NCBI GenBank assembly: GCA_963755825.1
Contig: CAVWLA010000001.1
Span: 258,808 to 322,807, forward strand
Direction of reading: 5' to 3'
Source: an uncultured Acidobacteriota bacterium
Lineage (GTDB): Bacteria > Acidobacteriota > Thermoanaerobaculia > Multivoradales > UBA5704
DNA: 64,000 nt
The notes under the pieces: model-generated
What the model saw: the letters and a program-made list of their open reading frames with translations, nothing else
What the model was told of the DNA's origin: nothing
Database searches by the model: none
Shown here: piece by piece, positions 6,623 through 60,778 of the stretch
Layout of the letters: every line of letters begins with the position of its first letter
Position numbering within the stretch: the stretch's first letter is position 1
Made by a program: the position numbers and the translations under genes

Positions 6623-6997
6623 TCATCCGAGATCGTTCTTGGTGTGCTCCGGCTCCGGGGCTGCGGCTTCGCCTTCCATGGGAGGCAGGGGGATGGCGGC
6701 CAGGCGGCAGCCGCCGGCCGCGATGGCGGCGAGGACGGCGACGGTGACCGCCAGGCGGGGGCCCTGCCAGAGGCTGCCGATCCATTGGCGGATCTCGTAG
6801 GCGAAGACGTTCGCCTGGCCGCCGTACATCTGGAGCTGGCGGAGGGACTGCTTGCTGTCCTCCATGCTGCCCAGGGGATCGTCCGGCGGCGGCGGCGAGG
6901 TGCGGTAGATCACCAGGGCGGCGAGGAGGCCGGCGGCGAGGATCGCGTTGCTCAGGATGCGGAGCGTCCTGGTGCGGGCGGCTGGCGTGATGCTCAT
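6623..6997 (-). CDS. Small membrane protein, hypothetical (124 aa, one predicted TM helix)
   Basis: ATG at 6995-6997. Hydrophobic segment LRILSNAILAAGLLAALVIY. The 5' ~200 bp is duplicated at 5389-5590. Confidence 0.45.
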   Translation of the reverse strand: MSITPAARTRTLRILSNAILAAGLLAALVIYRTSPPPPDDPLGSMEDSKQSLRQLQMYGGQANVFAYEIRQWIGSLWQGPRLAVTVAVLAAIAAGGCRLAAIPLPPMEGEAAAPEPEHTKNDLG

Positions 6998-7000
6998 GGG
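6796..7000. repeat. Direct repeat copy 2 (intact) of the ~200 bp segment
   Basis: Matches 5389-5590, see copy 1. Confidence 0.65.
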
Positions 7001-7282
7001 TTGGCTCCCCTCGCCGCGCCGCCGCTCGCGAGCTGCCCGGCGATCGGCATGCGGGGGATTCTATTGGAGACGGCGTGGGAGACAGCGGGCGTAACCTGCC
7101 ATATCCTGATAGCGTCTCTGTGGGCAGGCTCCGAGGGTCCGCCCCGGAACAAACCCTCGTTCTGAGCCGTTGTTTTCCACCGGATGTACCTCGGCGCGGC
7201 GCCCGCGGTCAGTTGTGGCGCTTCCCTTGCACTGTTCGATCGGGGCGGCTGTCTCGGGCCGTCCGTTTCCGGCGAGGATTCC

Positions 7283-8632
7283 ATGGGTAAAAAGGGCTGG
7301 GTGGTGATCGCGGCGATCGTCGCGGTGGTTCTCGCTGGAGGGATCTACTTCGAGCGGCACAAGACGCCGGAGCCCAGATTCCGCACCGTCAAGGTGGAGC
7401 AGGGAGACGTGGTGGCTACCGTCACCGCCTCCGGCACGCTGTCGGCGGTCACCACGGTGCAGGTGGGCAGCCAGGTCTCGGGGATCGTCGCCAAGCTCTT
7501 CGTCGACTTCAACTCCGAGGTGAAGAAGGGGCAGCTCCTGGCCGAGCTCGACCCGACGCCGTTCCAGGCGGCGGTCGACCAGCAGCAGGCGAGCGTGCAG
7601 AAGGCCAAGGTCGACCAGGTGAGCTCGCAGATCGCCTGGGGGCGGTCGAAGAAACTCCTGGCGCAGGGCCTGATCGCGCAGTCTGACTACGACACCGCCA
7701 CGGCGACGCGCGACGGCGCCGTCGCGGCGGTCAAGGTGGCTCAGGCGTCGCTCCAGCAGGCGCTCGCCAACCTCACCTATACGAAGATCCTGTCGCCGAT
7801 CGACGGCATCGTCGTCGACCGCGAGTACAACGTCGGGCAGACGGTGGCGGCCTCGTTCCAGGCGCCGACCATCTTCACCATCGCGCAGGATCTGGCGAAG
7901 ATGCAGGTGCTGACCAACATGGACGAGGCCGACATCGGCGGCATCAAGGTCGGCCAGAGCGCCAACTTCACCGTCGACGCGTTCCCCGACCAGACCTTCC
8001 GCGGCTCCGTGTCGCAGATCCGGCTGTCGCCGCAGACGGTGCAGAACGTCGTCACCTATCCCGTCGTCATCGACGTCGCCAACGTCGACTTGAAGCTCAA
8101 GCCCGGGATGACCGCCGACGTCCAGGTGCCGGTCGACGTGCGCCACGACGTGCTGCGGGTGCCGAACGCGGCGCTGCGCTTCAAGCCCGATCCCGCCGAC
8201 CTGGTGCCGGGAGCGGTGACGACGGTGACCGGCGGCGGCGGGACGGGCAAGCCGGGCGACCAGGCGGCTCAGGGCACCCAGGCGGCTCTCGGGACCGAGA
8301 GTGGCGCCGGGGGCGCGGCGTCTGGAGCCGCCGGAGCCGCCGGAGCGACCGGACATGGGGGCCGCGGCGCCGGCGGGGCGAGCCGCAGCGGCCGCACCGG
8401 CGGCGGCTCCCGCCAGGCCATCGTCTACGTCCAGGTCGAGAACGGCAAGCTCAAGCCGGTCCAGGTGCGCACCTCGATCACCGACGGCTCGTTCACCGCG
8501 GTGACCTCGAAGGATCTCAAGGTGGACGACGAGGTGGTCGTCGGCCTCGCCACGGCCAAGGCCGGCACCTCGTCGACCTCGCGGCCGCCGACCCTCGGCG
8601 GCGGCGGACCCGGCCGCGGCGGACCGCGGTAG
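7283..8632 (+). CDS. macA: Efflux ABC transporter periplasmic adaptor subunit (HlyD/MacA family)
   Basis: ORF 7184-8632 trimmed to ATG at 7283 (MGKKGWVVIAAIVAVVLAGG membrane anchor). It has coiled-coil and beta-barrel/lipoyl motifs typical of membrane fusion proteins (TKILSPIDGIVV, ADVQVPV). Gly-rich C-terminal tail. Confidence 0.85.
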   Translation: MGKKGWVVIAAIVAVVLAGGIYFERHKTPEPRFRTVKVEQGDVVATVTASGTLSAVTTVQVGSQVSGIVAKLFVDFNSEVKKGQLLAELDPTPFQAAVDQQQASVQKAKVDQVSSQIAWGRSKKLLAQGLIAQSDYDTATATRDGAVAAVKVAQASLQQALANLTYTKILSPIDGIVVDREYNVGQTVAASFQAPTIFTIAQDLAKMQVLTNMDEADIGGIKVGQSANFTVDAFPDQTFRGSVSQIRLSPQTVQNVVTYPVVIDVANVDLKLKPGMTADVQVPVDVRHDVLRVPNAALRFKPDPADLVPGAVTTVTGGGGTGKPGDQAAQGTQAALGTESGAGGAASGAAGAAGATGHGGRGAGGASRSGRTGGGSRQAIVYVQVENGKLKPVQVRTSITDGSFTAVTSKDLKVDDEVVVGLATAKAGTSSTSRPPTLGGGGPGRGGPR

Positions 8633-17667: not shown

Positions 17668-18900
17668 CGAGGGGTCTCCCGCCGCAGGCCGGCGGCGCCG
17701 AATCGAACCGGGCGAACCGGCAGGGTCGCGAGGCAGGGCAGGCTCTCGCGGTGGCCGCCCGCGGCGCCGGAATCGACGCTCGAGTCAGCGCTGGAACCGG
17801 CGCTGGAATCGGCGCTGGAATCGGCGCTGGAATCGGCGCTGGAATCGGGATGATAAACCAGGAGCGCGCCGGCACCGCTCCCGGAGAGCGCGCCGGCGCC
17901 GGAGATCTTGGCGGCGCCGCCGGCGGCCTCGATCTGTCGCACGATCCGCGCCACCGGCGCCGGCACCACGCCGAGCGCTTCGAGGCACTCCTCGAACTCG
18001 GCGAGCAGGTCGCGGATCGGCGCCGCGGTCGCGGCGCCGATCTCGAGGTCGGCGCGCAGCGCGACGGTCGCCGCCGCCATGCGGTCGAGGAGGCGCTCGG
18101 TGCCGGCGCGGTCGCGAGCCAGGCGCTCGCGGACCGCCGCCACCACGGCGCCGGTCGCCTCGGCCGGCGCGCCGGTGTCGTAGACGGCGAGGCGGTCGAG
18201 GGCGGTCGAGCGCAGCGCGATCGGCTCGACGGCGAGGCCGCCGCGGTCGCCCGGCGCCGGGGCGGTCCGTGCCGCCCACAGCAGGCCGCCGCGGAGCACC
18301 GTCGCCGCGTCGACCCCCGAGGGAGTGCCGTGCTGGCGGCGCTCGACCTCGTGCACCAGCCGCTCGACGGTCGCCAGGTCGGGCGCCGCGCCGCGCAGCG
18401 CCAGATAGCCCGCGACGACCGCCGCCGCCGCCGCCGCCGAGCTGCCGAAGCCGGAGCCCGGCGGCAGGTCGGAGTCGATGCGGAGCCGCAGCCCCGGCGG
18501 ATCGCCGGCGCCGGGAGGATCATCAGCGGAGCCCTCGCCGGTCTGCATGAGGTGCGCCGCCGCCTCGCCGAGCGAGACCTTGACGAGGTGCACCGGGTCT
18601 TCGCCGCGGAGCTGGCGGAAGGACGGCGCGCCGGAGCTCGCGGCATAGCCTGCCCAACGCTCGCGCGCCTGCCGCGCGTAGGCGAGGATCTCCTCCCAGC
18701 TGGTCTCCGCCGCGCAGCCGAGATCGGGGAGCTCGAGGCGGACGGATGGCGGCTCGCCGGGCGATGCGAGCGGGAAGAAGCGGGCGGTGAGGCGGAGATC
18801 GATCGCCGCGACCAGCGCCGGCCGGCCGTAGACGACGGCATGCTCGCCCATCAGGATGAGCTTGCCGGGGGTGGAGACGGCGAGCGGCCCGGAGCTCCGC
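17664..18900 (-). CDS. mvk: Mevalonate kinase; true start upstream of annotated ATG (conserved PGKLIL-GEHAVVYG motif spans the ATG), approximate 5' end
   Basis: GHMP kinase motifs PPGSGFGSSAA and KISGAGA. Translating upstream of the first ATG (18849-18851) in frame gives ...LAVSTPGKLIL-M-GEHAVVYG, the canonical MVK N-terminal strand, so translation must begin before 18851. No ATG/GTG/TTG is present between there and the hmgA stop (18958). Confidence 0.85.
17765..17848. repeat. 12 bp tandem repeat (cgctggaatcgg x ~6) inside the mvk coding region, encoding (SSAD)n
   Basis: Direct reading of 17789-17848 shows 5 perfect 12-mers plus degenerate flanking units. Translated on the minus strand as DSSADSSADSSADSSAGSSADSSVDSG, inserted after the MVK Gly-rich loop. 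Confidence 0.7.
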
Positions 18901-18957
18901 GCCGGACCGCCGGTCGCGGCGTCGGAGCCGGGGAGAAGGCCGTCGAGCAGGGGAGCC

Positions 18958-20253
18958 CTAGGTGGGGATCGGAGCCGCGGGAGGCACCGCGCCGCGCCCC
19001 AGCTTCTCGTGCGACCGCGCCAGGTCGCGGGAGGTGAGCGCCGACATCAGCGACAGCTCGCCGGCGAGCACCGCGCCGCCGACGATCTCCGCCAGGCGCA
19101 GCACCGCGTCGCCGCGGCGGAGCGGCTCGGGCGAGACGCCGAGGACGGTCAGCGCCTCGCGCTGGGTGTCGAGCGCCGTACCGCCGCCGATCGCCCCCAA
19201 CGGGCAGTCGGGGAGGAAGACCGAGGCGAAGACGGCGCCGTTGTCGCGCGGCTCGATGCAGGTCACCCCGAGCGATCCCTCGACCACCTGCGCCGGGTCC
19301 TGCCCGGTGGCGATGAAGAGGGCGGCGAGGACGTTGGCGTAGTGGGCGTTGAAGCCGAGCGAGCCGGCGGCGATCGAGCCGAGGAGGTTCTTCCGGTACT
19401 GCACCTCGACGAGCTCCTTGGCGTTGGTCTTGAGGATGGTCTCCAAGATGTCGGCCTCGACCACCACCTCGGCGTAGATGCGCTTGCCGCGCCCCTCGTG
19501 GAAGTTGACCGCCGCCGGCTTCTTGTCGGCGCAGTAGTTGCCCGAGAGCGAGATGCAGGCGACGCCGGTCGACGGCTCAATGAGGTCGCTGATGACGCGG
19601 TCGCAGGCGATGGTCGCCATGTTCATCCCCATGGCGTCGCCGGAGTCGAATCGGAAGCGCAGGAAGACCGTGGTGCCGAAGGCGAAGGGTCGCACGTCGA
19701 GGAGCTTCAGGTAGCCGCTCGTCGACTCGGCGATGCGCCGGATGTCGGCATCGTGATCCTCGATCCAGCGCAGGAACTGCTGCGTCTGCACGATGCCGGA
19801 GGTGCGGAAGACCGGCGCCCGCGTCATCCCCACGTCCTCGACGCGGACGGTCGCGCCGCCGGCGGCGGAGATCGCCGTGCAGCCGCGGTTGGTGCTGGCG
19901 ACGAGCGCCGCCTCGGTGGTGGCGAGCGGCAGGTAGACGTCGCCCTGCACGTGGTTGCCGCGCAGGGTGAGCGGGCCGGCGACGCCCATCGGGATCTGCG
20001 CGATGCCGATGAAGTTCTCGCAGTTGCGCGCCGCGGCGCGGTTGACGTCGAGCGAATGCTGGGCGATGTGATGGAGGGGAGCGCGCGTCAGCTCCTCGAG
20101 CGCCTGGCGGCGGATCTCGGCCGCCATCTGCGGCGGCAGATCCTTCGGCAGCTGATGGAAATGGATCTCACGGGCGACCAGCGAGCGCACCAGCTCATCG
20201 CGGGTGGAAGGGCGTCTCAAGGTGGATGCGAGTGGTCTCATCGTCTCGTTCAT
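18958..20253 (-). CDS. hmgA: HMG-CoA reductase, class I (NADPH-dependent, archaeal/eukaryotic type)
   Basis: 431 aa with ENFIGIAQIPMGVAGPL, DAMGMNM and GTxGG motifs characteristic of class I HMGR. Confidence 0.9.
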   Translation of the reverse strand: MNETMRPLASTLRRPSTRDELVRSLVAREIHFHQLPKDLPPQMAAEIRRQALEELTRAPLHHIAQHSLDVNRAAARNCENFIGIAQIPMGVAGPLTLRGNHVQGDVYLPLATTEAALVASTNRGCTAISAAGGATVRVEDVGMTRAPVFRTSGIVQTQQFLRWIEDHDADIRRIAESTSGYLKLLDVRPFAFGTTVFLRFRFDSGDAMGMNMATIACDRVISDLIEPSTGVACISLSGNYCADKKPAAVNFHEGRGKRIYAEVVVEADILETILKTNAKELVEVQYRKNLLGSIAAGSLGFNAHYANVLAALFIATGQDPAQVVEGSLGVTCIEPRDNGAVFASVFLPDCPLGAIGGGTALDTQREALTVLGVSPEPLRRGDAVLRLAEIVGGAVLAGELSLMSALTSRDLARSHEKLGRGAVPPAAPIPT

Positions 20254-47514: not shown

Positions 47515-49392
47515 ATGACCGAGAACAACGAGACCACCGAGACGAACGATCCCAGCCAGCCGGCGCCGCCGGCGAAGGCGCTCAAGCCGGCGCCGAAGCC
47601 GGTCCTCTTCACCGTCGACGACGACCTCGAGGTGCTGCGCGCCGTCGAGCGCGACCTCCGCCGCCGTTACGGCGCCGATTACCGGGTGCTCCGCGCCAGC
47701 TCCGGCGCCTCGGCGCTCGAGGCGCTCCGCGAGCTCAAAGCGCGCGACGGCGCCCTTGCCCTCCTCCTCGTCGACCAGCGGATGCCGCAGATGAACGGCG
47801 TCGAGCTGCTCGAGCAGGCGATCCCGCTCTTCCCCGACGCCAAGCGCGTGCTCTTGACCGCCTACGCCGACACCGACGCCGCCATCCAGGCGATCAACTC
47901 GGCGCGCCTCGACTACTACCTCCTCAAGCCCTGGGACCCGCCGGAGGAGAATCTCTATCCGGCGCTGGACGACCTGCTCGCTGACTGGAAGGCGGGCTAC
48001 AGGCCGCCGTTCGAAGGGGTCCGGGTGGTGGGGCACCGGTGGTCGCCGCGATCGTTCGAGGTCCGCGACTTCCTCGCCCGCCACCAGGTGCCGTATCGGT
48101 GGCTCGACGTCGAGACCGACACGGCGGCGAAGCGGCTGGCGGAGGAGACGGTGGGGGTGGCGGCGGCGGATGCTGCGGAATCGCTCGATCCGGCCGAGGC
48201 GGTGACGGCCGTGACCGCGGCGACCGCCGCGGCCGCCGGAGTCACCCCGAAACCCTGCCTGCCGCTGGTCTTCTTTCCCGACGGCTCGCATCTGACCGAG
48301 CCGACGCGCGCCGAGCTCGCCGCCCGCCTCGGTCTGCGCACGCAGGCGGAGAAGCCGTTCTACGACCTGGTGATCGTCGGCGGCGGCCCGGCGGGGCTGG
48401 CGGCCGCGGTCTATGGCGCCTCGGAAGGGCTGCGGACGCTGATGGTCGAGGGCGACGCGCCGGGCGGGCAGGCGGGGACGAGCTCGCGGATCGAGAACTA
48501 TCTGGGCTTCCCGTCCGGTCTTTCGGGCGCCGACCTGACGCGGCGCGCGGTCGCCCAGGCGGCGCGCTTCGGGGTCGAGATCCTGTCGCCGCAGGAGGCG
48601 ACGGGCCTGAGGTTGGAGGACGCCTATCGCATCGTCACGCTGGGCGACGGCACGGCGGTGAGCTGCCACGCGCTCCTGGTGGCGACGGGGGTGTCCTATC
48701 GCAAGCTCGACATGCCGGGCGTCGAGCGGCTGACCGGCGCCGGGATCTACTACGGCGCCGCGATGACGGAGGCGATGTCCTGCCGCAACGAGGAGGTCTT
48801 CGTCGTCGGCGGCGCCAACTCGGCGGGCCAGGCGGCGATGCACCTCTCGAAGTACGCCAAGAAGGTGACCATGCTGGTGCGCGGCGCGTCGCTCGCGGCG
48901 GGGATGTCGCAGTACCTGGTCGATCAGATCTGCGGCACCCCGAACATCGAGGTGCGGTTCGGCGCCCAGGTCGCCGAAGCGCACGGCGAGGAGAGCCTGG
49001 AGGAGCTGACGATCGAGGTGCGGGAGGTCGGAAAGGAGACCTTGCCGGCGAACTCGCTGTTCATCCTGATCGGGGCGATGCCGCGGACGGGGTGGCTGGA
49101 GGGGGTGGTGGCGCGGGACGACCGGGGGTTCATCCTGTCGGGGCCGGATCTGGTGAGCGATGGAAATGGGAATGGGGCGGGTGGGGCGGGAGCGGATGGG
49201 GGGGAGGGGAAGGCCGGGCGGCGGCCTCGCGGGTGGACGCTGGACCGCGACCCTTTTTTGCTCGAGACCTCGGTGCCCGGGGTGTTCGTCGCCGGGGACG
49301 TGCGGCATGGGTCGGTCAAGCGGGTGGCCTCTGGGGTGGGGGAGGGGGCGATCGCGGTTTCGTTCGTGCACCAGTATCTGGCGCGGTTGTAG
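47515..49392 (+). CDS. Response-regulator receiver domain fused to thioredoxin-reductase-like FAD/NAD(P) flavoprotein lacking the CxxC redox disulfide
   Basis: REC domain (FTVDDDLEVLRAV...LLLVDQRMPQMNG...LLKPWD). Central thioredoxin/glutaredoxin-like fold. TrxB-like GxGxxG motifs (LVIVGGGPAGLAAAVYG and VFVVGGANSAGQAAMHL). The TrxB CATC position reads TEAM, leaving a single Cys nearby. Confidence 0.8.
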   Translation: MTENNETTETNDPSQPAPPAKALKPAPKPVLFTVDDDLEVLRAVERDLRRRYGADYRVLRASSGASALEALRELKARDGALALLLVDQRMPQMNGVELLEQAIPLFPDAKRVLLTAYADTDAAIQAINSARLDYYLLKPWDPPEENLYPALDDLLADWKAGYRPPFEGVRVVGHRWSPRSFEVRDFLARHQVPYRWLDVETDTAAKRLAEETVGVAAADAAESLDPAEAVTAVTAATAAAAGVTPKPCLPLVFFPDGSHLTEPTRAELAARLGLRTQAEKPFYDLVIVGGGPAGLAAAVYGASEGLRTLMVEGDAPGGQAGTSSRIENYLGFPSGLSGADLTRRAVAQAARFGVEILSPQEATGLRLEDAYRIVTLGDGTAVSCHALLVATGVSYRKLDMPGVERLTGAGIYYGAAMTEAMSCRNEEVFVVGGANSAGQAAMHLSKYAKKVTMLVRGASLAAGMSQYLVDQICGTPNIEVRFGAQVAEAHGEESLEELTIEVREVGKETLPANSLFILIGAMPRTGWLEGVVARDDRGFILSGPDLVSDGNGNGAGGAGADGGEGKAGRRPRGWTLDRDPFLLETSVPGVFVAGDVRHGSVKRVASGVGEGAIAVSFVHQYLARL

Positions 49393-49424
49393 AGGCTGGG
49401 CGAGCCGGCGGGTCGATTCGCGTC

Positions 49425-49740
49425 GCGCGCGATGGGGAAGGCGCGGCGGCGATGCGGTCGCGGCGGCCGCAACGGGGAAGCGGCGGCGCGAGTGGGGAAG
49501 GATCGGCTGCAATGAGGAAGGATTCGATTCTTCCTCGAAGGATTGGATTCTTCCTCGAAGCGGCCGCCGTGATGAGGAAGAATCCGGTCCTTCCTCAAAT
49601 CGGCCGTCGCAATGAGGAAGAATCCGATCCTTCCTCTCTGCAGCCGCCGCGATGGCGAAGAATCCGATCCTTCGCCATCGCGGCGGTCTCAGAGAGGAAG
49701 AGATCGATCCTTCGGCTCTCCGGCCGTCGAAATGTACTTT
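49425..49740. repeat. Tandem array of ~8 imperfect 20/40 bp hairpin repeats (consensus cggccgNcgNNatgaggaagaatccgatccttcctc)
   Basis: Units read directly: ...aatgaggaaggattcgattcttcctcgaag / gattggattcttcctcgaag / cggccgccgtgatgaggaagaatccggtccttcctcaaat / cggccgtcgcaatgaggaagaatccgatccttcctctctg / cagccgccgcgatggcgaagaatccgatccttcgccatcg / cggcggtctcagagaggaagagatcgatccttcggctctc. The stem gaggaag/cttcctc is replaced by ggcgaag/cttcgcc in one unit, a compensatory change. The array is preceded by 20 bp tggggaag units. Confidence 0.75.
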
Positions 49741-49809
49741 CTGGGCGGATCAGTGCGGGCCGCCGGCCTTCGCGAAAGACGATCTGCCGACCGTATCGTA
49801 GGTCGTGCC

Positions 49810-49832
49810 CCAGGGGGCCCTTCGCCCCCTGG
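49810..49832. terminator. Palindromic hairpin ccagggggc-ccttc-gccccctgg downstream of convergent genes
   Basis: Perfect 9 bp stem, 5 nt loop. Confidence 0.35.
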
Positions 49833-49986
49833 ACCCCCGCTCGGGCGGGCGCCGGGAGGGTTTCGCGACGGCAGTGGGTGTGCGGCACCGAAGAAGGGTG
49901 AGGCCGCCGCAGAGTCCCGTGCCACGGCTGGGTGGGGCGAGGAAGGGTGTAGCGCGAGGGCGCCGGGTTCTTGGGCGGGAGCTGTC

Positions 49987-52900
49987 CTAATCCGCCGGGT
50001 CGGAGAATTCGGCGAGGTGTTCCTCGACGAGGTCGGCGCGGTCGATGCTTTCCCAGGCAGACCTCGCCTGCGCTACGAGCTCGCGCCGCGAGGCAGGGTC
50101 TGGTGCGAGACGGGCAAGGCGGACGAGGGACCAACCGATCGAATAGGGCTCCGGGATACGGCGGTAGAGCGCGAGGGCCGCGTTGAATTGAGAGCTCGCG
50201 GCCGCGCGGTCGCCAGCCGAAAGGTCGATATCGCCGAGGCTTCTTATGCAAGTGGCCTCGCCGAGCACACCGCCGACGCGCCGGTAAAGAGGCAGAGCCT
50301 TCTGAAAGAGGTTGCGGGCGGTGTCGTGGTCGGCGTGTTCGCGAGCAATGTCGCCGAGGCTACAGAAGCAATCGGCCTCGCCGCGCGCGTCGCCGAGGCG
50401 CCGGTAGAGAGGCAGAGCCTGCTGAATAAGGTTACGGGCGGTGGCATGGTCGGAGCGGTCGAGAGCGATGTCGCCGAGGCTCTGGACACAATGGGCCTCG
50501 CCGATCATGCTGCCGATGCGCCGGTACAGAGGCAGAGCCTCCTGATAGAGGTCGCGAGCGGTGTCATGGTCGGAAAGTTGAAAAGCGATGTCGCCGAGCT
50601 TCCGGATGCAATTGGGCTCGCCGCGCCCGGTGCCGAACTGCCGGTAGAGAGGCAGAGCCTGCTGGTACAAATCGCGGGCGGTGCCGTGGTCAGAACGGTC
50701 GAGAGCGATGTCGCCGAGGCCCTGGATGCAATTGGCTTCGCCGAGCACCTTACCGACGCGCCGATAGAGAGGCAGGGCCTGCTGGTATAGGTCGCGGGCG
50801 ATGCCGTGGTCAGAACGGTAATAGGCGAGATGGGCGAACTGCGCAAGACACTCTGCTTCGATCTGTGGGTCGCCGAGCCGTGCCGCTGCCTTCAGGGTCT
50901 GTTCTTGTAGGGCCGGAGACGCTAGAAATCCGGTAAAGCTCGCGAATTTGGCCAGGGCTCTGCAAGCGGCCAGCGCCCGTTGCATGCCCTCGAGCTCGAG
51001 ACCGAGACCGAGACCGAAAATCGCCGTCGCTTCGAGGTTCCCCACCTCCGGGGCGAGACGTTCGATGGCGCCGGTGCCACCCTCGGTGCCAACCAGGTTG
51101 CCGAGCATTGCGAGCTCGAGGTAGTGGGCGACGGCGCGCTGCTGATCTTCCACCGCCGGCGGGTGACGACGCCGAACGTGCTCGCGCACGGGAGCCAGCG
51201 TGCGCAGCCTTCTATCCGAATCGAACGCCAGGCCGACTCGGCGCAGCACCGCGGCCGCCTCCTCGGCATCCTCGCTCAGAACTGCCGCGAGATCCTGGTG
51301 GGCGATGCCGTCTGGGAGTACGGCGTGGAGCGCCAGTAGGGAACGCGCTGCGGGGGTCATCCGTTTGCTGCCGATGGAGAGCTCAAGCGAGACGGCGAGG
51401 TTGGTGAGGCGCTGGTCGCCGTCGCTGGCGCGGAGCATCTCTGTGCGCTGGTCTTGCCAGCGGCGCGTGAGCCCTACGAGATCGGGCTCGGATTCGGCCT
51501 GGTAGGCGAGGAGCGTGACGGCGAGGGCGAGGCGGTCGACGGCTTCGATCAGAGGTACGAGCTGAGGATCGGAGCCGAGACGCGCTCCGGTCACGGCAAG
51601 GAAGGCGCTCCGCGCGGCCTCGGGGCTGAGCGGGCCGGCGTGAATCGCTTCGCGCCAGGGAATGCCGAAGGGCCGCTGCTCGCCGCGGATCGAGGCGGCC
51701 AGGGCCAGCCCCGAGATGCTGCAGAGATCGGCGATGAACGCCTCGGTTGCGGCCGTCTCCGCTTCCCACGGAGTTTCCAGGTTGTCCAGTACGAGCGCGA
51801 TGGGCGCCCGCTCCAGCTCAGCGAAGACTGCCGGCTCGGTGAGCGGCCCGGGCTCGACGCCGAGGGAGCGCGCGATCTCGGCGGCGAGCGCCTCGCGGCC
51901 TTTGGCGCCGTCGCAGCGGACGAAGTAGCGGCGAGGTCCGAACCGCGCGAAGGTCGGTGGGGCGTGGAGCGCTCGGAGGGTGATGGTCGACTTTCCCGCG
52001 CCGGCAGGGCCGAGGATCGGCGTCGGGGATGGCGGATCGGCGCAGAGGGAGTCGACGAGGTCGCGGATCTCGTCTTCGCGGCCGAAGCAGCGCGGGACTG
52101 TGGGGAGCCGAGGAGCACTGGGTGGGGCGCTCGGTGGCGGAGAGCTGAGTCTTCCGGCCGCCGGGCTCGCGGCGGGTACGAGCGAACGAAAGAAGGGCGC
52201 GAGGTCGCCGTAGTCAGCGCCGTAGGCGAGCGCAAAGATTCGATCCTCCCGGGGGTGCTGAGCTTGAACGCTCGCCAGCTCACTGTCGCGGCAGAGCCGG
52301 AAGTGCCGAGCCTCTCCCTCCGAGAGTACCTGGCGCGACCAGCGGAGGAGAGCCCCGAAGTTGGGATCGGCGAGGCCGTTGCCGCAGCCGATGAAGAGCA
52401 GTGTCTTCATGGTGCGCAGTGCGCGCAGCACATTCTGCGCGTGGGCATCGCCGATGACCTGCTCATAGCTGCGGATGCCCAGGACGACCGATTCCGGCTC
52501 GTCCCAGTAGCCGTGCAAGTGGAGGATCGCCGGCTCGTCGCGGAGCGCTCTCTCGATTTTGAGGCCCTGGCGCCAGGTCACCGCCGGTCTGCGCGTCACC
52601 TCTTCGAGTAGGCCGTCGTAGTTGGTTGTCGCCAGGGGGATTCCGAGATCACGCAGGGCGTCGAGCACGGAACGATCCTCGGCGCGAAGCGCTCCGACCG
52701 TCTCTTTCAGCCAGAGGCTGTACTCGGACCCGGCGGGCGCGCCGAGCTTGGCGGCGATTTTCTCTGCCGCGGAGAGAAGGTCGTCCATGTCGCCCGAACC
52801 GACGTCGGCGAGCACGCGATCTCTCCAGCCAGCGGGCAAGGATGCGCCGACGAACTGCACGCACCACTCCACGCCGACCTTAAGAAGCCCCGTCCAGGAA

Positions 52901-53013
52901 GAAGCGGGGGCGTTGCGGGTCGCGCCGACCGAGACTCCTGTCCCGACGATCGCGAGGACTCGCCCGGCGGCGACCTCCGTACGGAGATCCTGAAGTAGCA
53001 GCTCTTGAGTCAT
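49987..53013 (-). CDS. SIR2-like domain / STAND (NB-ARC-like) NTPase / TPR-repeat protein, antiviral STAND (Avs5-like, SIR2-STAND) candidate defense protein
   Basis: 1008 aa. The N-terminal ~270 aa SIR2_2/DUF4020-type domain has LAIVGTGVSV, TTNYDGLLE and LHLHGYW. The central P-loop NTPase has Walker A ILGPAGAGKSTI, Walker B LVLDNLE and a helical winged-helix region. The C-terminal ~350 aa hold at least 7 near-identical TPR units (RSDHGIARDLYQQALPLYRRVGKVLGEANCIQGLGDIALD). GC is lower than neighbouring genes. Confidence 0.8.
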   Translation of the reverse strand: MTQELLLQDLRTEVAAGRVLAIVGTGVSVGATRNAPASSWTGLLKVGVEWCVQFVGASLPAGWRDRVLADVGSGDMDDLLSAAEKIAAKLGAPAGSEYSLWLKETVGALRAEDRSVLDALRDLGIPLATTNYDGLLEEVTRRPAVTWRQGLKIERALRDEPAILHLHGYWDEPESVVLGIRSYEQVIGDAHAQNVLRALRTMKTLLFIGCGNGLADPNFGALLRWSRQVLSEGEARHFRLCRDSELASVQAQHPREDRIFALAYGADYGDLAPFFRSLVPAASPAAGRLSSPPPSAPPSAPRLPTVPRCFGREDEIRDLVDSLCADPPSPTPILGPAGAGKSTITLRALHAPPTFARFGPRRYFVRCDGAKGREALAAEIARSLGVEPGPLTEPAVFAELERAPIALVLDNLETPWEAETAATEAFIADLCSISGLALAASIRGEQRPFGIPWREAIHAGPLSPEAARSAFLAVTGARLGSDPQLVPLIEAVDRLALAVTLLAYQAESEPDLVGLTRRWQDQRTEMLRASDGDQRLTNLAVSLELSIGSKRMTPAARSLLALHAVLPDGIAHQDLAAVLSEDAEEAAAVLRRVGLAFDSDRRLRTLAPVREHVRRRHPPAVEDQQRAVAHYLELAMLGNLVGTEGGTGAIERLAPEVGNLEATAIFGLGLGLELEGMQRALAACRALAKFASFTGFLASPALQEQTLKAAARLGDPQIEAECLAQFAHLAYYRSDHGIARDLYQQALPLYRRVGKVLGEANCIQGLGDIALDRSDHGTARDLYQQALPLYRQFGTGRGEPNCIRKLGDIAFQLSDHDTARDLYQEALPLYRRIGSMIGEAHCVQSLGDIALDRSDHATARNLIQQALPLYRRLGDARGEADCFCSLGDIAREHADHDTARNLFQKALPLYRRVGGVLGEATCIRSLGDIDLSAGDRAAASSQFNAALALYRRIPEPYSIGWSLVRLARLAPDPASRRELVAQARSAWESIDRADLVEEHLAEFSDPAD
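50232..51090. repeat. ~120 bp tandem DNA repeats (x7) encoding the TPR sensor units of the STAND protein
   Basis: Plus-strand units ccggtagagaggcagagcctgctg...gatgtcgccgaggc... recur every ~120 bp at about 80% identity. Confidence 0.7.
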
Positions 53014-53167
53014 TCCGTTTTGCCTGCGTGAATGCTATCTCAGACGGCGAGGCGCCACGTGGGTGCGGAGCGAGAGCTGCGAACAGGCGGCGCGGCAGAG
53101 AGGCTGGCAAATTCTTTCGGGGGCGCCAAAGGCTTGCGGCGGTCTCGTCCCGCGAAGTGATTCAAAT

Positions 53168-53278
53168 CGTCATCCTGAGCGGAGCGAAGGATCTGGGCGG
53201 GGGGAGCTCTAAGCACAAGACGGTCAATGACTTGGAGCGCTCCCTTCCCCCGGATCCTTCGCTTCGCTCAGGATGACG
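53168..53278. repeat. Long hairpin (26 bp arms cgtcatcctgagcggagcgaaggatc / gatccttcgcttcgctcaggatgacg, ~59 nt loop with inner pairing)
   Basis: Arms at 53168-53193 and 53253-53278 are reverse complements with 1 mismatch. A third copy of the right arm lies at 53722-53746. Confidence 0.7.
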
Positions 53279-53395
53279 TACGAAGTTTCCGTGAGCCATC
53301 GCGGCGAAGTATTTGGCGGAGCCAGCAAGAATTTGCAGGCTCTGAGGACGAGGCCGATCGCCAGAATCGGGGATGAGTCGCGGCCCGCGTCCCAG

Positions 53396-53675
53396 CACGG
53401 GCATGAATGCCCGTGCTATGAGGGGCGCCGGATAAATCCGGCTTCGCGCAGTCCGTGGGCTCGTCTCGATGCCGCGGACGAGAGGTAGCGATGAGCCACA
53501 ATCTGGACGGATTGCGGACAACGCGCCCTCCTCAACATCGCCGGCGTCCTCTGCGGCTCCGGATCGGCTGAGGCGATCGAAATCCGTCTGCCGACCGCCA
53601 ACGCGCTGACCGTCCCAGTGCGCGAAGCCGGATTCATCCGGCGCCCCTCAATAGCACGGGCATTCATGCCCGTGC
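53396..53675. mobile_element. MITE-like element: ~58 bp terminal inverted repeats flanking ~165 bp, itself flanked by 25 bp direct repeats (53253-53278 and 53722-53746)
   Basis: Left TIR gcacgggcatgaatgcccgtgctatgaggggcgccggataaatccggcttcgcgcag (53396-53452). Right TIR cagtgcgcgaagccggattcatccggcgcccctcaatagcacgggcattcatgcccgtgc (53616-53675). The right TIR is the reverse complement of the left with about 4 mismatches, and each TIR contains two internal hairpins. No transposase ORF is present inside. Confidence 0.45.
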
Positions 53676-53815
53676 GGGGGTCCGGTGGCCTCGACTCGAG
53701 CCCGCGAATGCGGCGTGGCCAGATCCTTCGCTTCGCTCAGGATGACACTGCGCGGGAGCGTCAAGGAACCATGGCGCCGAAGAAATTGGCAGCGCCGCAC
53801 GAAACTCGCAAGCGC

Positions 53816-54775
53816 TCAGCTCACCGGCGCGATCCGCAGCACGATCTTGCCTCGCGTGTGCCCCGTCTCGCTGGCGGCGTGGGCTTGGGCGACGTCTTCT
53901 AAGAGATAGGTCTTTTCGATGGTGGGGCGGAGGAGGTGGGTTCGGGCGAGCTCGGCTAAGAGGTCGAGGTCGCGGGCGTTGGGTTGGGTCTTGATCCAGC
54001 GGGCTCGGCGGGCTTCGGGGGAGAGGCGGGCGGCGAAGGCGGTGCGCAGGCGGGCGAGGGCGATGCGGGGGCCGATCTCGGTGGTCACGTAGGTGCCTCC
54101 GTCGAGGAGGGCGCGGTCGCAGAGGGTGAAGTCGGAGGCTCCGGCGGCGTCGAAGATGACGTGGAAGGCCTCGTCTCCGGCGGTGAAGTCTTCGGTCGTG
54201 TAGTCGATGGTGCGCTCGGCGCCGAGGCCGCGGAGGAACTGCTGGCTGGTGGGGCCGGCGATGGCGGTGACGTGGGCTCCGATGGCGGCGGCGATCTGGA
54301 CGGCGAGGTGACCGACTCCGCCGGCGGCACCGAGGATGGCGAGGCGCTGGCCGCGGGCGAGGGCGGCGAGGTCGCGCAGGGACTGGAGCGCGGTGAGGCC
54401 CGCCAGGGGGAGCGCCGCGGCCTCTTCGTAGGTGAGCTCCTCGGGCTTGTGGGCGACGGCGGTGGCGAGAGCGTACTCGGCGTAGCCGCCGGCATGGCCG
54501 TCGAGCATGGCGAAGACGGGGTCTCCCGGCTCGAAGCCCTCGACCTCGGGGCCGACCGCCTCGACGTCCCCCGAGACGTCGAAGCCGAGGATGTGGGGGA
54601 AGCGCAGGGGGTGGACGAAGCGGAGGCTGCCCCGGCGGATCTTCCAGTCGATCGGGTTGACGCTCGCGGCGCGGACGCGGATGAGGACCTGGCCGGCTCC
54701 CGCGGTGGGGCGGCTGGCGCCGCCGATGATCAGCCGCTCGGGGCCGCCGTAGCGGGTGAGGAGGGCCGCCCTCAT
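53816..54775 (-). CDS. qor: NADPH:quinone oxidoreductase / zinc-independent MDR-family oxidoreductase
   Basis: 319 aa with a GroES-like N-domain and Rossmann motif ILGAAGGVGHLAVQIA. Confidence 0.8.
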   Translation of the reverse strand: MRAALLTRYGGPERLIIGGASRPTAGAGQVLIRVRAASVNPIDWKIRRGSLRFVHPLRFPHILGFDVSGDVEAVGPEVEGFEPGDPVFAMLDGHAGGYAEYALATAVAHKPEELTYEEAAALPLAGLTALQSLRDLAALARGQRLAILGAAGGVGHLAVQIAAAIGAHVTAIAGPTSQQFLRGLGAERTIDYTTEDFTAGDEAFHVIFDAAGASDFTLCDRALLDGGTYVTTEIGPRIALARLRTAFAARLSPEARRARWIKTQPNARDLDLLAELARTHLLRPTIEKTYLLEDVAQAHAASETGHTRGKIVLRIAPVS

Positions 54776-55087
54776 TCGGCGGCTCCCGCCGCGGCCCAGC
54801 GGCGTGCGGGTCTCGCGCCTTGTTGGTTCATCGATCTCTCCGTGCGCGAGGCGTGCGGTTCGCGAAGGGGTGCCGCGCGGCTGCTGCTGCCGCTCGGCGG
54901 AGCGAGTGTAGCCCAGCGGGTTGCGCGCTGCAGATGGCTGGCGATTTCGTTGTCGCCGGTCGATGCGGAACGGTCTGTGGCAAGAGCTCGCGGATTGGCG
55001 GGGCGCCGCCCGCTGGCTGTAACATGACCGGGCAGCGCCGCGCCTCTAGCTCCGACGATGAACCTCATCTCTCATGGAGGAAGCTCG

Positions 55088-55999
55088 ATGGACTCCTATC
55101 TCCACAGGCTGCCGAGACTGTGCCTGCCGCTCGCCGCGGCGGCTCTCCTGCTCGCCGAGGTGGCGCCCGCCCAGGCCACGGTCAACACCGTCTATGCCTG
55201 CGCCGGCGGCGGCAACGGCGGCCAGCACGACTACATCTTCAACGGCTTCTACGTCGCCAACGTGCACGCCACCAACCTGCACTCGGTCGCCATCATCTAC
55301 CGGTCCGATTCGTCCGGCACCTACTCGATCAGCCTGACGGCCCACCGGGGCTCGTACACCGGCCCGGTGGTGGGGACGACGCAGACGCTGAACGCGTCGC
55401 TCCCGTCCGGCGCCGACCAGCAGCTCACCTACAACTTCGGCGATGCCGCGATGAACACCGGCGACACCCTCTTCTTCACCCACACCTACAGCGGTCCCGG
55501 CAACGTCTTCTTCAGCCTTTCGGATTCGGGCTGCACGGGGGACGAGGAGTCGGTCGGCACCTCGAGCAACCTCAACGGCTTCAGCGTCGGCGTCGCCATC
55601 ACCTCGAACGTCGTCAACACGCCGCCGCCGCCGACCTGCCCGAACGCGCAGACGCTCTGCATCGACGACGTCGCCGGCGACAAGCGCTTCCAGATCACCG
55701 TCACCTACAACACCGGCACCACCTCGGGCAACGGCGGCCCGATCGACCTGAAGCCGGTCAACGTCACCTTCGGCGGCCTCTTCTGGTTCTTCAACCCGAG
55801 CAACCCCGAGATGCTGATCAAGGTGCTCGACGGCTGCACGGTGAACAATCACTTCTGGGTCTTCTACTCGGCGGGCACCGACGTCGGCTTCCACGTCACC
55901 GTCAAGGACTCGAAGACCGGCCACATGGTCAGCTACAGCAATCCGCTCCACACGGCGGCGCCGCCGGTGCAGGACACCAGCGCCTTCGTCTGCCCTTAG
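55088..55999 (+). CDS. Secreted protein with the shared ~105 aa C-terminal module (third family member)
   Basis: ORF 55058-55999. Start assigned to ATG 55088 (GGAGGA RBS 7 nt upstream; signal peptide MDSYLHRLPRLCLPLAAAALLLAEVAPAQA). The C-terminus (...KRFQITVTYNTG...FGGLFWFFNPSNPEMLIKVLDGC...DTSAFVCP) is homologous to the 26691-28509 proteins. Confidence 0.6.
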   Translation: MDSYLHRLPRLCLPLAAAALLLAEVAPAQATVNTVYACAGGGNGGQHDYIFNGFYVANVHATNLHSVAIIYRSDSSGTYSISLTAHRGSYTGPVVGTTQTLNASLPSGADQQLTYNFGDAAMNTGDTLFFTHTYSGPGNVFFSLSDSGCTGDEESVGTSSNLNGFSVGVAITSNVVNTPPPPTCPNAQTLCIDDVAGDKRFQITVTYNTGTTSGNGGPIDLKPVNVTFGGLFWFFNPSNPEMLIKVLDGCTVNNHFWVFYSAGTDVGFHVTVKDSKTGHMVSYSNPLHTAAPPVQDTSAFVCP

Positions 56000-60529: not shown

Positions 60530-60778
60530 ATGGGCATTCTGGCTTGGATCGTGCTCGGTATCGTCTCTGGCTTCGTCGCCAGCAAGATCGTCAACAAGAG
60601 CGGCGAGGGACTCCTCCTCGACCTCGTGCTCGGCATCATCGGCGCGGTGGTCGGCGGCTGGCTGTTCAGCATGTTCGGCCACAGCGGCGTCACCGGCCTC
60701 AACCTCTACAGCTTCCTGGTGGCGATCATCGGCGCCGTCCTCGTCCTCGTCATCTACCACGCCATCCGGCGGATGTAA
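60530..60778 (+). CDS. GlsB/YeaQ/YmgE-family (transglycosylase-associated) small membrane stress protein
   Basis: 82 aa with 3 TM helices and the motif GILAWIVLGIVSGFVASKI...GIIGAVVGGWLF. AGGGGG RBS. Confidence 0.75.
   Translation: MGILAWIVLGIVSGFVASKIVNKSGEGLLLDLVLGIIGAVVGGWLFSMFGHSGVTGLNLYSFLVAIIGAVLVLVIYHAIRRM

Follow-up and report, generated by a model that had tools for sequence, protein, structure and literature searches.

What is the 802-bp spacer at positions 53014-53815 of a 64-kb stretch of DNA from an uncultured Acidobacteriota bacterium (contig CAVWLA010000001.1; the whole stretch is called the window below), and why is it full of repeats? The spacer separates two open reading frames (ORFs) on the minus strand. 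ORF 49987-53013 encodes a 1008-aa protein with SIR2_2, AAA_16 and TPR domains, a STAND (signal transduction ATPase with numerous domains) defence gene; ORF 53816-54775 encodes a 319-aa protein similar to Zn-dependent dehydrogenases and quinone oxidoreductases. The first-pass annotation had rightly singled out this long intergenic region, and had interpreted its repeats as a miniature inverted-repeat transposable element (MITE) or an integration scar. Our reading, to which we assign a probability of about 0.8, is that repetitive extragenic palindromes (REPs) of two superfamilies are combined here in a mosaic resembling bacterial interspersed mosaic elements (BIMEs); its units would be handled in trans by a nuclease and would have gathered in a spacer that tolerates them, on the border of a variable defence slot.

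All structures described earlier in this spacer are real and far beyond chance. The hairpin at 53168-53278 (111 nt) is longer than had been claimed, with arms of 43 nt and 86% complementarity, the outer 26 nt being near-perfect. Its folding energy as DNA is -45.5 kcal/mol (z = -10.6), and none of 200 shuffles folds as well. The imperfect inverted repeats of about 58 bp, said to be built of two small palindromes, are confirmed at 53391-53450 and 53619-53679; they are 97% complementary with one 1-nt indel, lie 168 nt apart, and consist, in every arm, of CACGGGCAT-nn-ATGCCCGTG and GCCGGAT-nn-ATCCGGC. The direct repeats (53250-53277 and 53719-53746) extend over 28 nt at 96% identity and have an identical 25-nt core. 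In the hairpin, the left arm is a third, inverted copy of the 25-nt repeat (53169-53193) and the right arm is the left direct repeat. The 25-mer has no matches in dinucleotide shuffles of the window, and the whole spacer folds far better than shuffles do (minus strand, z = -10; plus strand, z = -13). No further occurrence of these motifs was observed elsewhere in the window.

The 25-nt repeat, called unit U below (copies U1, U2 and U3), belongs to a widely dispersed family. A scan of one representative genome per species (596 Gb) with the exact 22-mer CCTTCGCTYCGCTCAGGATGAC produced at least 120 loci from at least 14 phyla, with an estimated 0.14 or so matches expected by chance. Many of the loci compared here and below are from metagenome-assembled genomes. 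Among the matches listed, Acidobacteriota are the majority, the other carriers being Verrucomicrobiota, Bacteroidota, Chloroflexota, Gemmatimonadota, Nitrospirota, Planctomycetota, Bacillota, Patescibacteria, Omnitrophota, WOR-3, Bdellovibrionota, Myxococcota and Pseudomonadota, and several genomes have two or three separate U loci each. The conserved stretch has a sharp start at (C/T)GTCATCC and runs a few bases past GGAYC. An inverted partner arm is often found 20-90 nt downstream, the ends of the intervening spacer being complementary and locus-specific. Many U loci share this head-head layout with the window, where U3 and U2 form a dimer around a 59-nt spacer with complementary ends; its central part (about 53214-53233) matches no other compared locus. 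The tags of U place it in the CGTC-tagged superfamily, which, together with the GTAG-tagged one, was defined by Di Nocera, De Gregorio & Rocco 2013 (PMC3733652).

Copies of U free of the scan-pattern constraint have a strand-specific fold GTC-[ATCCT]-GA-[GC]-GNA-[GC]-GA-[AGGAT]-C, comprising a 5-bp stem, tandem G·A/A·G, a 2-bp GC stem and a GNA triloop. This fold is supported by covariation, not by nearest-neighbour energy. Compensatory changes occur in all 7 of the 7 Watson-Crick pairs, 96% of the cells are paired, and the score was reached by 0 of 500 shuffles. For instance, C-G, U-A and G-C occupy pair 6-22 in 24, 14 and 5 copies, respectively. Positions 9·19 (G·A) and 10·18 (A·G) are invariant or nearly so, and in the loop G-N-A the middle position is free. 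Obvious chance matches were removed from this alignment by hand, and the unfiltered count gives the same picture. Since the complementary strand would carry C·T mismatches, we infer that the constraint acts on one strand of a single-stranded nucleic acid, and that U is not a binding site for a protein recognizing duplex DNA.

Incomplete copies of U were observed as well. Two to four tandem truncated heads stand directly upstream of a complete U in L022, L027, L032, L035, L097, L105, L120 and L275. Each head is GTCATYCTGAG followed by 7-12 locus-specific nucleotides, and the period is 19-23 nt (e.g. L022 at about 418, L275 at 2300-2390). These arrays look like products of repeated re-initiation or slippage at a fixed point of the hairpin, and may mark a nick site. 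Judging by our own translations, U is presumably also the source of widespread spurious small ORFs of the "VILSEAKDL" or "SFASLRMT" type.

The arms of the inverted repeat, M1 and M2, are copies of another, GTAG-like module containing two hairpins, A and B. A metagenome search with CACGGGCATNNATGCCCGTG yielded 127 copies in 108 loci, soil metagenome contigs among them by the dozen. The tag (A/G/T/C)TAG is found beside hairpin A in 78 of the 127 copies (ATAG 46, GTAG 26, TTAG 5, CTAG 1). The 58 non-identical copies can be aligned as a single module: hairpin A, tag, 6-10-nt linker, hairpin B, TTCGC. Hairpin B is 97% paired, 5 of its 7 pairs are compensatory, and its variants are CCGGAT/ATCCGG, CCGGCT/AGCCGG, CCCGC/GCGGG and CCCCCT/AGGGGG. 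The module occurs solo, in tandem, and in inverted pairs of both polarities with varying spacing; inverted pairs are also present in L147, L148, L161, L162, L182, L198, L201, L215 and L217. Seven tandem copies of a three-hairpin version, with a period of about 140 nt, were observed in L158 (2767-3635). No transposase gene was found beside the A/B copies. A tblastn search with three Y1_Tnp proteins gave no match in the window or in the A/B loci save a weak one in L213, the genomes being sampled around the repeats only. The plasmid collection contains no match to the module.

When the whole spacer was compared by blast with all other loci, only the U arms and the A/B modules matched, and the segments 53454-53614, 53294-53380 and 53694-53713 have no match in the 108 palindrome-carrying loci or in other compared loci. 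Small ORFs crossing the spacer, including those that cross 53451-53618, have no Pfam match. The units are independent, dispersed, structure-constrained repeats without coding capacity. The modules recur in other genomes and metagenomes; as for the genome at hand, in which the first-pass annotation had proposed to look for further copies, the window holds none outside this spacer. The notion of a non-autonomous element survives in so far as these are dispersed repeats with no transposase gene nearby, but not as a single MITE made of terminal and direct repeats.

On the REP reading, the three structures would arise as follows (Table 1). U3 and U2 face each other with the tags outside and would thereby produce the 111-nt hairpin. 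U1, a solo unit, has the same orientation as U2 and would so create the apparent 25-bp direct repeat. M1 and M2 stand tail to tail and would so mimic 58-bp terminal inverted repeats. The units would be selfish hairpins on which a nuclease encoded at another place acts in trans, the DNA being single-stranded or cruciform. The partners named in the literature for the GTAG type are the REP-associated tyrosine transposases (RAYTs). The candidate partner of the CGTC type is a GIY-YIG nuclease of about 95 aa, of the UPF0213/YhbQ type, with its gene between or inside CGTC-REP dimers; gene-less dimers such as 53168-53278 would be non-autonomous derivatives of this GIY-YIG element.

Table 1. Repeat units of the spacer and adjacent segments (window coordinates; L269 is the related locus discussed below).
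Feature	Positions	Strand	Description
U3, CGTC-type REP unit	53168-53193	+	tag CGTC 53168-53171; hairpin ATCCT-GA-GC-GGA-GC-GA-AGGAT 53172-53192; one mismatch to the 25-mer; structure backed by family covariation
Spacer of the head-head dimer	53194-53252	none	ends 53194-53210 / 53236-53252 partly complementary, locus-specific; central loop 25 nt
U2, CGTC-type REP unit	53253-53278	-	minus strand CGTCATCCTGAGCGAAGCGAAGGATC; tag CGTC; right hairpin arm
M1, GTAG-like REP module	53391-53450	-	hairpin A 53395-53416; tag ATAG (minus strand) 53416-53419; hairpin B 53427-53442; tail TTCGCGCA
DNA between M1 and M2	53451-53618	none	unique, 168 nt; no match in 270+ compared loci
M2, GTAG-like REP module	53619-53679	+	hairpin B' 53627-53642; tag ATAG 53651-53654; hairpin A' 53654-53675; tail-tail dimer with M1, tags inside
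U1, solo CGTC-type REP unit	53722-53747	-	minus strand TGTCATCCTGAGCGAAGCGAAGGATC; tag TGTC
Flank on the tag side of U3	53136-53167	none	alignable with L269 12748-12779; right edge of the STAND cassette
Cassette of about 3.7 kb, not in L269	49403-53135	-	SIR2-NTPase-TPR gene 49987-53013, leader of about 120 nt, 585-nt tail with palindrome array of 40-nt period; basis: synteny, Pfam/PADLOC domains

The candidate enzyme emerged from the neighbourhoods of U. Among the matches listed for the at least 120 U loci, no common gene recurs save a GIY-YIG gene encoding about 95 aa, located less than 100 bp from U units in three of them (L030, L103 and L113). A profile of these three proteins has at least 7,932 homologs (PF01541). 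Of the solved structures, the UPF0213 proteins 1zg2 and 1ywl come closest, and the similarity to SLX1 is sub-significant (E = 0.3-0.8). We then sampled 13 loci by protein and not by repeat. Seven of them come from genome or metagenome proteins (Hymenobacter, Firestonebacteria, a forest-soil contig, Nitrospinae, the proteins P0062 and P0101 from metagenome contigs, and one viral-collection contig) and six are plasmid-collection records (Azospirillum lipoferum 4B, Novosphingobium aromaticivorans, Neisseria gonorrhoeae (dRS3), Sinorhizobium, Planktothrix and Aeromonas).

CGTC-type REPs were observed on both sides of the GIY-YIG gene in all 13 sampled loci. Under a strict rule requiring perfect stems the count is 12 of 13, the flanking units of L249 having one mismatch; by the same rule, units number 8.3 per kb up to 200 bp from the gene and 0.23 per kb farther away. 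The stems of the REPs at these loci are lineage-specific and the architecture is constant. In L249, L266, L272 and L276 the gene lies inside a single head-head dimer. The taxa with the GIY-YIG gene in the plasmid collection overlap the list of CGTC-REP species in PMC3733652. The association of the GIY-YIG gene with CGTC-type REPs is shown by these loci. In viral contigs, only one close relative of the GIY-YIG gene was found, also with U units, and distant phage GIY-YIG genes have no such hairpins.

The relationship between gene-bearing and gene-less dimers can be traced in L264, where a 97-nt gene-less dimer aligns to both ends of a neighbouring 361-nt gene-bearing element. The match covers 34 of 35 aligned nucleotides at the left and 56 of 57 at the right, where it takes in the final 19 nt of the ORF, and the coding interior is deleted. 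By this alignment, the gene-less dimer is an internal-deletion copy of the GIY-YIG-bearing element. The nuclease would cut or mobilise the REPs, by homing or by transposition.

The balance tips slightly towards the following specific model. CGTC-tagged REPs would be non-autonomous partners of the dedicated UPF0213/YhbQ-type nuclease of about 95 aa, the minimal autonomous element being "REP> gene <REP" of 340-400 bp and gene-less head-head dimers (53168-53278 among them) having arisen from it by deletion. The target recognised by the nuclease, for homing or transposition, would be the strand-specific hairpin with its CGTC tag, tandem G·A and GNA loop.

A RAYT was considered as the partner of U and rejected. 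The Y1_Tnp genes found 1.3-3.6 kb from some GIY-YIG genes carry no U units at their ends, and there is no Y1_Tnp homolog in the window or, among the matches listed, in the at least 120 U loci. These Y1_Tnp genes (IS200/RAYT-like, PF01797) occur in three independent loci: L250/L251 (1-412), L254-L262 (e.g. L254 5560-6240) and L266 (1-349). They may be there by chance or belong to another repeat system of these genomes.

Several other features of the GIY-YIG loci were observed. In L271 (A. lipoferum 4B plasmid AZO_p3 255506-255799) the gene and REP dimers are situated between sufB and sufC of the suf operon, and in L275 (Planktothrix plasmid 18847-19131) the gene has an MmeI-type restriction-modification gene on one side and drmA, a DISARM gene, on the other. 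The loci L254-L263, which encode the GIY-YIG protein P0062 and come from different samples, contain two to four complete tandem U units with a period of 33 nt upstream of the gene and are otherwise near-identical; lower counts are seen only at contig ends. In L250 (4276-4285) and L253 (4315-4324) the stop codon of the GIY-YIG gene, TGA or TAA, lies within the downstream REP unit (GTCATTCTGA or GTCATCCTAA). As the ORF ends in the REP unit, some proteins of this family in databases extend into translated REP.

Some observations weigh against the REP mosaic or its proposed mechanism. All five repeat copies seen in the window sit in one spacer. A single 25-nt unit has a weak folding energy (-2.7 kcal/mol, z = -0.9). 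Near-identity of the 22-mer across phyla is unusual, REPs being normally lineage-specific; identity across at least 14 phyla means either that the partner nuclease constrains the sequence strongly or that horizontal spread is frequent. No case of a U dimer being inserted or excised was seen; the only changes observed were in tandem copy number, along with a single deletion derivative. Most A/B tags are ATAG and not GTAG, and the link of this module to RAYTs is drawn from the literature only. The window contains neither homologs of the three query Y1 transposases nor, according to a comparison of the family hidden Markov model with the six-frame translation, a GIY-YIG gene or its remnant, and because of the latter its U units are at most non-autonomous copies. 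Finally, adjacency of the GIY-YIG gene and REPs could mean that the gene homes into REPs rather than moves them.

The local history of the slot bears on two alternatives. The oxidoreductase has its best named homologs in Thermoanaerobaculia and other Acidobacteria, and the STAND protein has no exact match on the protein record. A 2,742-bp Logan contig of ERR11718634 encodes an oxidoreductase protein identical to that of the window and stops 95 nt past its stop codon; going by coordinates alone (window 53721-53816), this point coincides with the end of U1, as an assembly break at a repeat would lead one to expect. From position 60772 down to 46934, the window is collinear with a related locus, L269, with amino acid identities of 97% for DnaB, 92% for Alr and 74% for the oxidoreductase. 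The variable slot lies between the oxidoreductase gene and a conserved gene encoding 625 aa (window 47515-49392); we compared window 47515-54775 with L269 8001-14693 and with L270 2364-3573, a third relative. In the window the slot contains the SIR2-NTPase-TPR gene, with ThsA/LmuA/Dsr1-like SIR2 matches. In L269, which provides the comparison with an orthologous locus suggested in the first-pass annotation, it contains a convergent KAP-NTPase gene with PifA/QatA-like matches, and neither the SIR2-STAND gene nor the REP cluster. In L270 a PhdYeFM-like antitoxin gene is found downstream of the oxidoreductase gene.

One solo U-like unit is retained in L269 (12724-12747), with the extension CTGGGCGGGGGAG as in U3. 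Since the similarity between the window and L269 extends about 33 nt past the tag of U3 (pairwise blastn: 75% over 68 nt, E = 2e-5), the two units are probably orthologous. U3 would then be ancestral, older than the split from L269; the window would have gained the SIR2-STAND cassette on the tag side of U3, and L269 its KAP-NTPase cassette on the other side. This places the boundary of the acquired cassette at about 53135, beside an older REP unit. In GC content the cassette (0.675) lies below the window as a whole (0.714). That the STAND gene was acquired horizontally, earlier derived from the repeats, is supported by synteny with the relatives and not by the repeats, and the slot downstream of the oxidoreductase gene looks like a hot spot of defence or accessory genes.

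Two further differences were seen in this region. Between the stop codons of the STAND gene and the 625-aa gene there is a tandem array (49430-49740) of about 6-7 copies with a 40-nt period, containing palindromes such as GAGGAAGAATCCGATCCTTCCTC and GCCGCGATGGCGAAGAATCCGATCCTTCGCCATCGCGGC. Its core GCGAAGAATC/GATCCTTCGC resembles the inner part of the U head-head dimer, and it lies within the cassette that is not in L269. In L269, a 432-aa gene (6706-8004) directly upstream of the oxidoreductase gene has no counterpart in window 54776-55126, and thus there is a second indel beside the oxidoreductase gene.

One possibility, in our opinion an unlikely one, is that the REP cluster is a recombination or attachment site, an anchor for the integration of defence cassettes similar to the repeat-flanked slots of Neisseria. 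Indeed, no more than about 35 nt separate U3 from the cassette boundary that synteny indicates, the KAP-NTPase cassette of L269 abuts the opposite side of the probably orthologous unit, L270 has yet another gene at this place, and the other end of the window cassette holds the palindrome array with its dimer-like core. However, no integrase or recombinase gene was seen beside the cassette, no matching repeat pair brackets it, only one relative is informative, and REPs may simply pile up where insertions are tolerated.

Another possibility, equally doubtful, is that the spacer encodes a locally selected transcribed structure, in the 3' untranslated region of the oxidoreductase gene or the 5' leader of the SIR2-STAND gene, acting as a barrier to decay, a site of termination or pausing, or a block of translation. 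The two flanking genes share the minus strand, so that transcription reading through the spacer would include every hairpin; the z-scores of the whole-spacer fold given above agree with such a structure, and REPs are reported to lie mostly downstream of genes and have been proposed to be RNA elements (PMC3733652). On the other hand, the modules occur in unrelated contexts in many genomes, L269 has no REP cluster at this site, and by synteny the STAND cassette carries its own leader of about 120 nt (about 53014-53135), leaving the REP cluster outside. No intrinsic terminator (a GC-rich stem followed by a T-run) was found in 52800-54000, and no sigma-70-like promoter consensus was found. Rfam at the gathering threshold has no match in the window and a single tRNA among 20 repeat-bearing loci; a permissive threshold adds sub-threshold miRNA-like hairpin matches and BjrC68 at 12-13 bits (threshold 39). 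A regulatory effect is compatible with the REP mosaic, and is possible as a secondary one, a by-product or exaptation.

The single MITE or integration scar, an element of about 280 bp with 58-bp terminal inverted repeats and a 25-bp target duplicated on insertion, is a tempting annotation, since a 97% inverted repeat of about 60 nt and a direct repeat of 25-28 nt do exist, with no transposase gene nearby. We consider it wrong in all likelihood. Gaps of 113 nt and 40 nt separate the direct repeats from the ends of the inverted repeat, and the direct repeats themselves belong to a dispersed family, so the claim that they flank the element as a target duplication does not hold; the left one, moreover, is one arm of the 111-nt hairpin. 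None of the 108 loci with the same palindrome contains the interior or the linkers, and the arm of about 60 nt is found solo, in tandem and in both pair orientations with varying spacing. The REP mosaic replaces this annotation. Chance palindromes, for which nothing speaks beyond the high G+C content, can be dismissed in view of the absence of the 25-mer from shuffles, the z-scores between -10 and -13, and hundreds of related copies elsewhere.

Among known systems, a comparable layout is that of the BIMEs of E. coli and the Rhizobium-specific intergenic mosaic elements, in which several REP palindromes in alternating orientation, interleaved with short motifs, occupy one spacer between co-directional genes. 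The cluster in the window is similar, but mixes two unrelated REP superfamilies and has unique linkers. In Neisseria, minimal mobile elements are variable gene slots between conserved genes, with dRS3 and Correia repeats at the borders; the slot considered here likewise has differing cargo between conserved genes and a CGTC-type REP at its border, as seen in the two or three genomes compared. With MITEs the repeats share being short, non-coding, multi-copy and inverted-repeat-bearing, and presumably being mobilised in trans, and the gene-less dimer of L264 is MITE-like as an internal-deletion copy of a gene-bearing element. They differ in that no target-site duplication abuts the element, the repeated unit is a hairpin of 25-60 nt and not a segment of 280 bp, and the candidate enzyme is a GIY-YIG nuclease and not a DDE transposase.

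The system formed by GTAG-tagged REPs, their hairpin-forming doublets (REPINs) and RAYTs was reportedly described by Nunvar in 2010 and by Bertels and Rainey in 2011. Hairpin A is similar to these REPs in its GC-rich stem of 9-10 bp, 2-nt loop and unpaired xTAG, and in occurring as singletons and inverted dimers. However, its tag is more often ATAG (46 copies) than GTAG (26), the module combines hairpin A with a covarying second hairpin, B, and in some cases with a third one, and no RAYT gene was found near any A/B copy, the weak Y1_Tnp match in L213 apart, in the genomes as sampled around the repeats. The dimer in the window, of the tail-tail type as defined in PMC3733652, carries its tags on the inner side, and its A hairpins are about 235 nt apart, wider than the usual 20-100 bp.

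The free-standing GIY-YIG homing endonucleases (phage Seg/I-TevI type) and the structure-specific nuclease Slx1 share the PF01541 domain with the REP-linked protein, and its small, selfish-looking gene is similarly found between host genes, as in the case of sufB and sufC. Unlike them, the REP-linked protein, as predicted from the loci compared, has about 95 aa and no DNA-binding extension and is always bracketed by REPs, whereas the phage GIY-YIG relatives from viral contigs have no such hairpins.

The CGTC class, as described, has tags CGTC, TGTC or CCTC, stems of 8-9 bp starting with A-T, T-A, loops of 4-5 nt and a short tail; head-head dimers with the tags outside predominate, with spacers of 20-100 bp that often have complementary ends (PMC3733652). 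Its members include Neisseria dRS3 and Rickettsia RPE-4 and RPE-6, and it was reported from five phyla, mostly from alpha-Proteobacteria, with no dedicated transposase (PMC3733652). Unit U fits this description in its tags (CGTC in U3 and U2, TGTC in U1), its stem ATCCTGAGC / GCGAAGGAT (nine stacked positions, two of them G·A, and a GNA loop, or eight and a 5-nt loop), its A-T/T-A stem start, short tail, intergenic location and head-head dimers. It differs in the invariant tandem G·A/A·G and GNA triloop of the stem, in the spread of the 22-mer over at least 14 phyla with Acidobacteriota dominant, as opposed to five phyla, and in the consistent association with a GIY-YIG gene, as opposed to the lack of a dedicated transposase.

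The class itself is thus known. In the literature searched, we found no paper tying GIY-YIG, UPF0213 or YhbQ proteins to REPs, MITEs, dRS3 or palindromic repeats, and searches with the repeat sequence strings returned primer coincidences only; the GIY-YIG nuclease is a candidate for the partner enzyme of the CGTC class. The CGTC class includes Neisseria dRS3 and the Rickettsia RPE elements, which shape the genome plasticity of pathogens, and the questions of its origin and mobilising enzyme date back to 2013; the nesting of the GIY-YIG gene in REPs makes the question of the enzyme testable with named genes, such as AZOLI_RS22735 of A. lipoferum. If the link is correct, the GIY-YIG nucleases and CGTC-type REPs, Neisseria dRS3 among them, would constitute in more than 15 phyla a second system of REPs and nuclease, parallel to REPIN-RAYT, with the GIY-YIG fold in place of the HUH fold.

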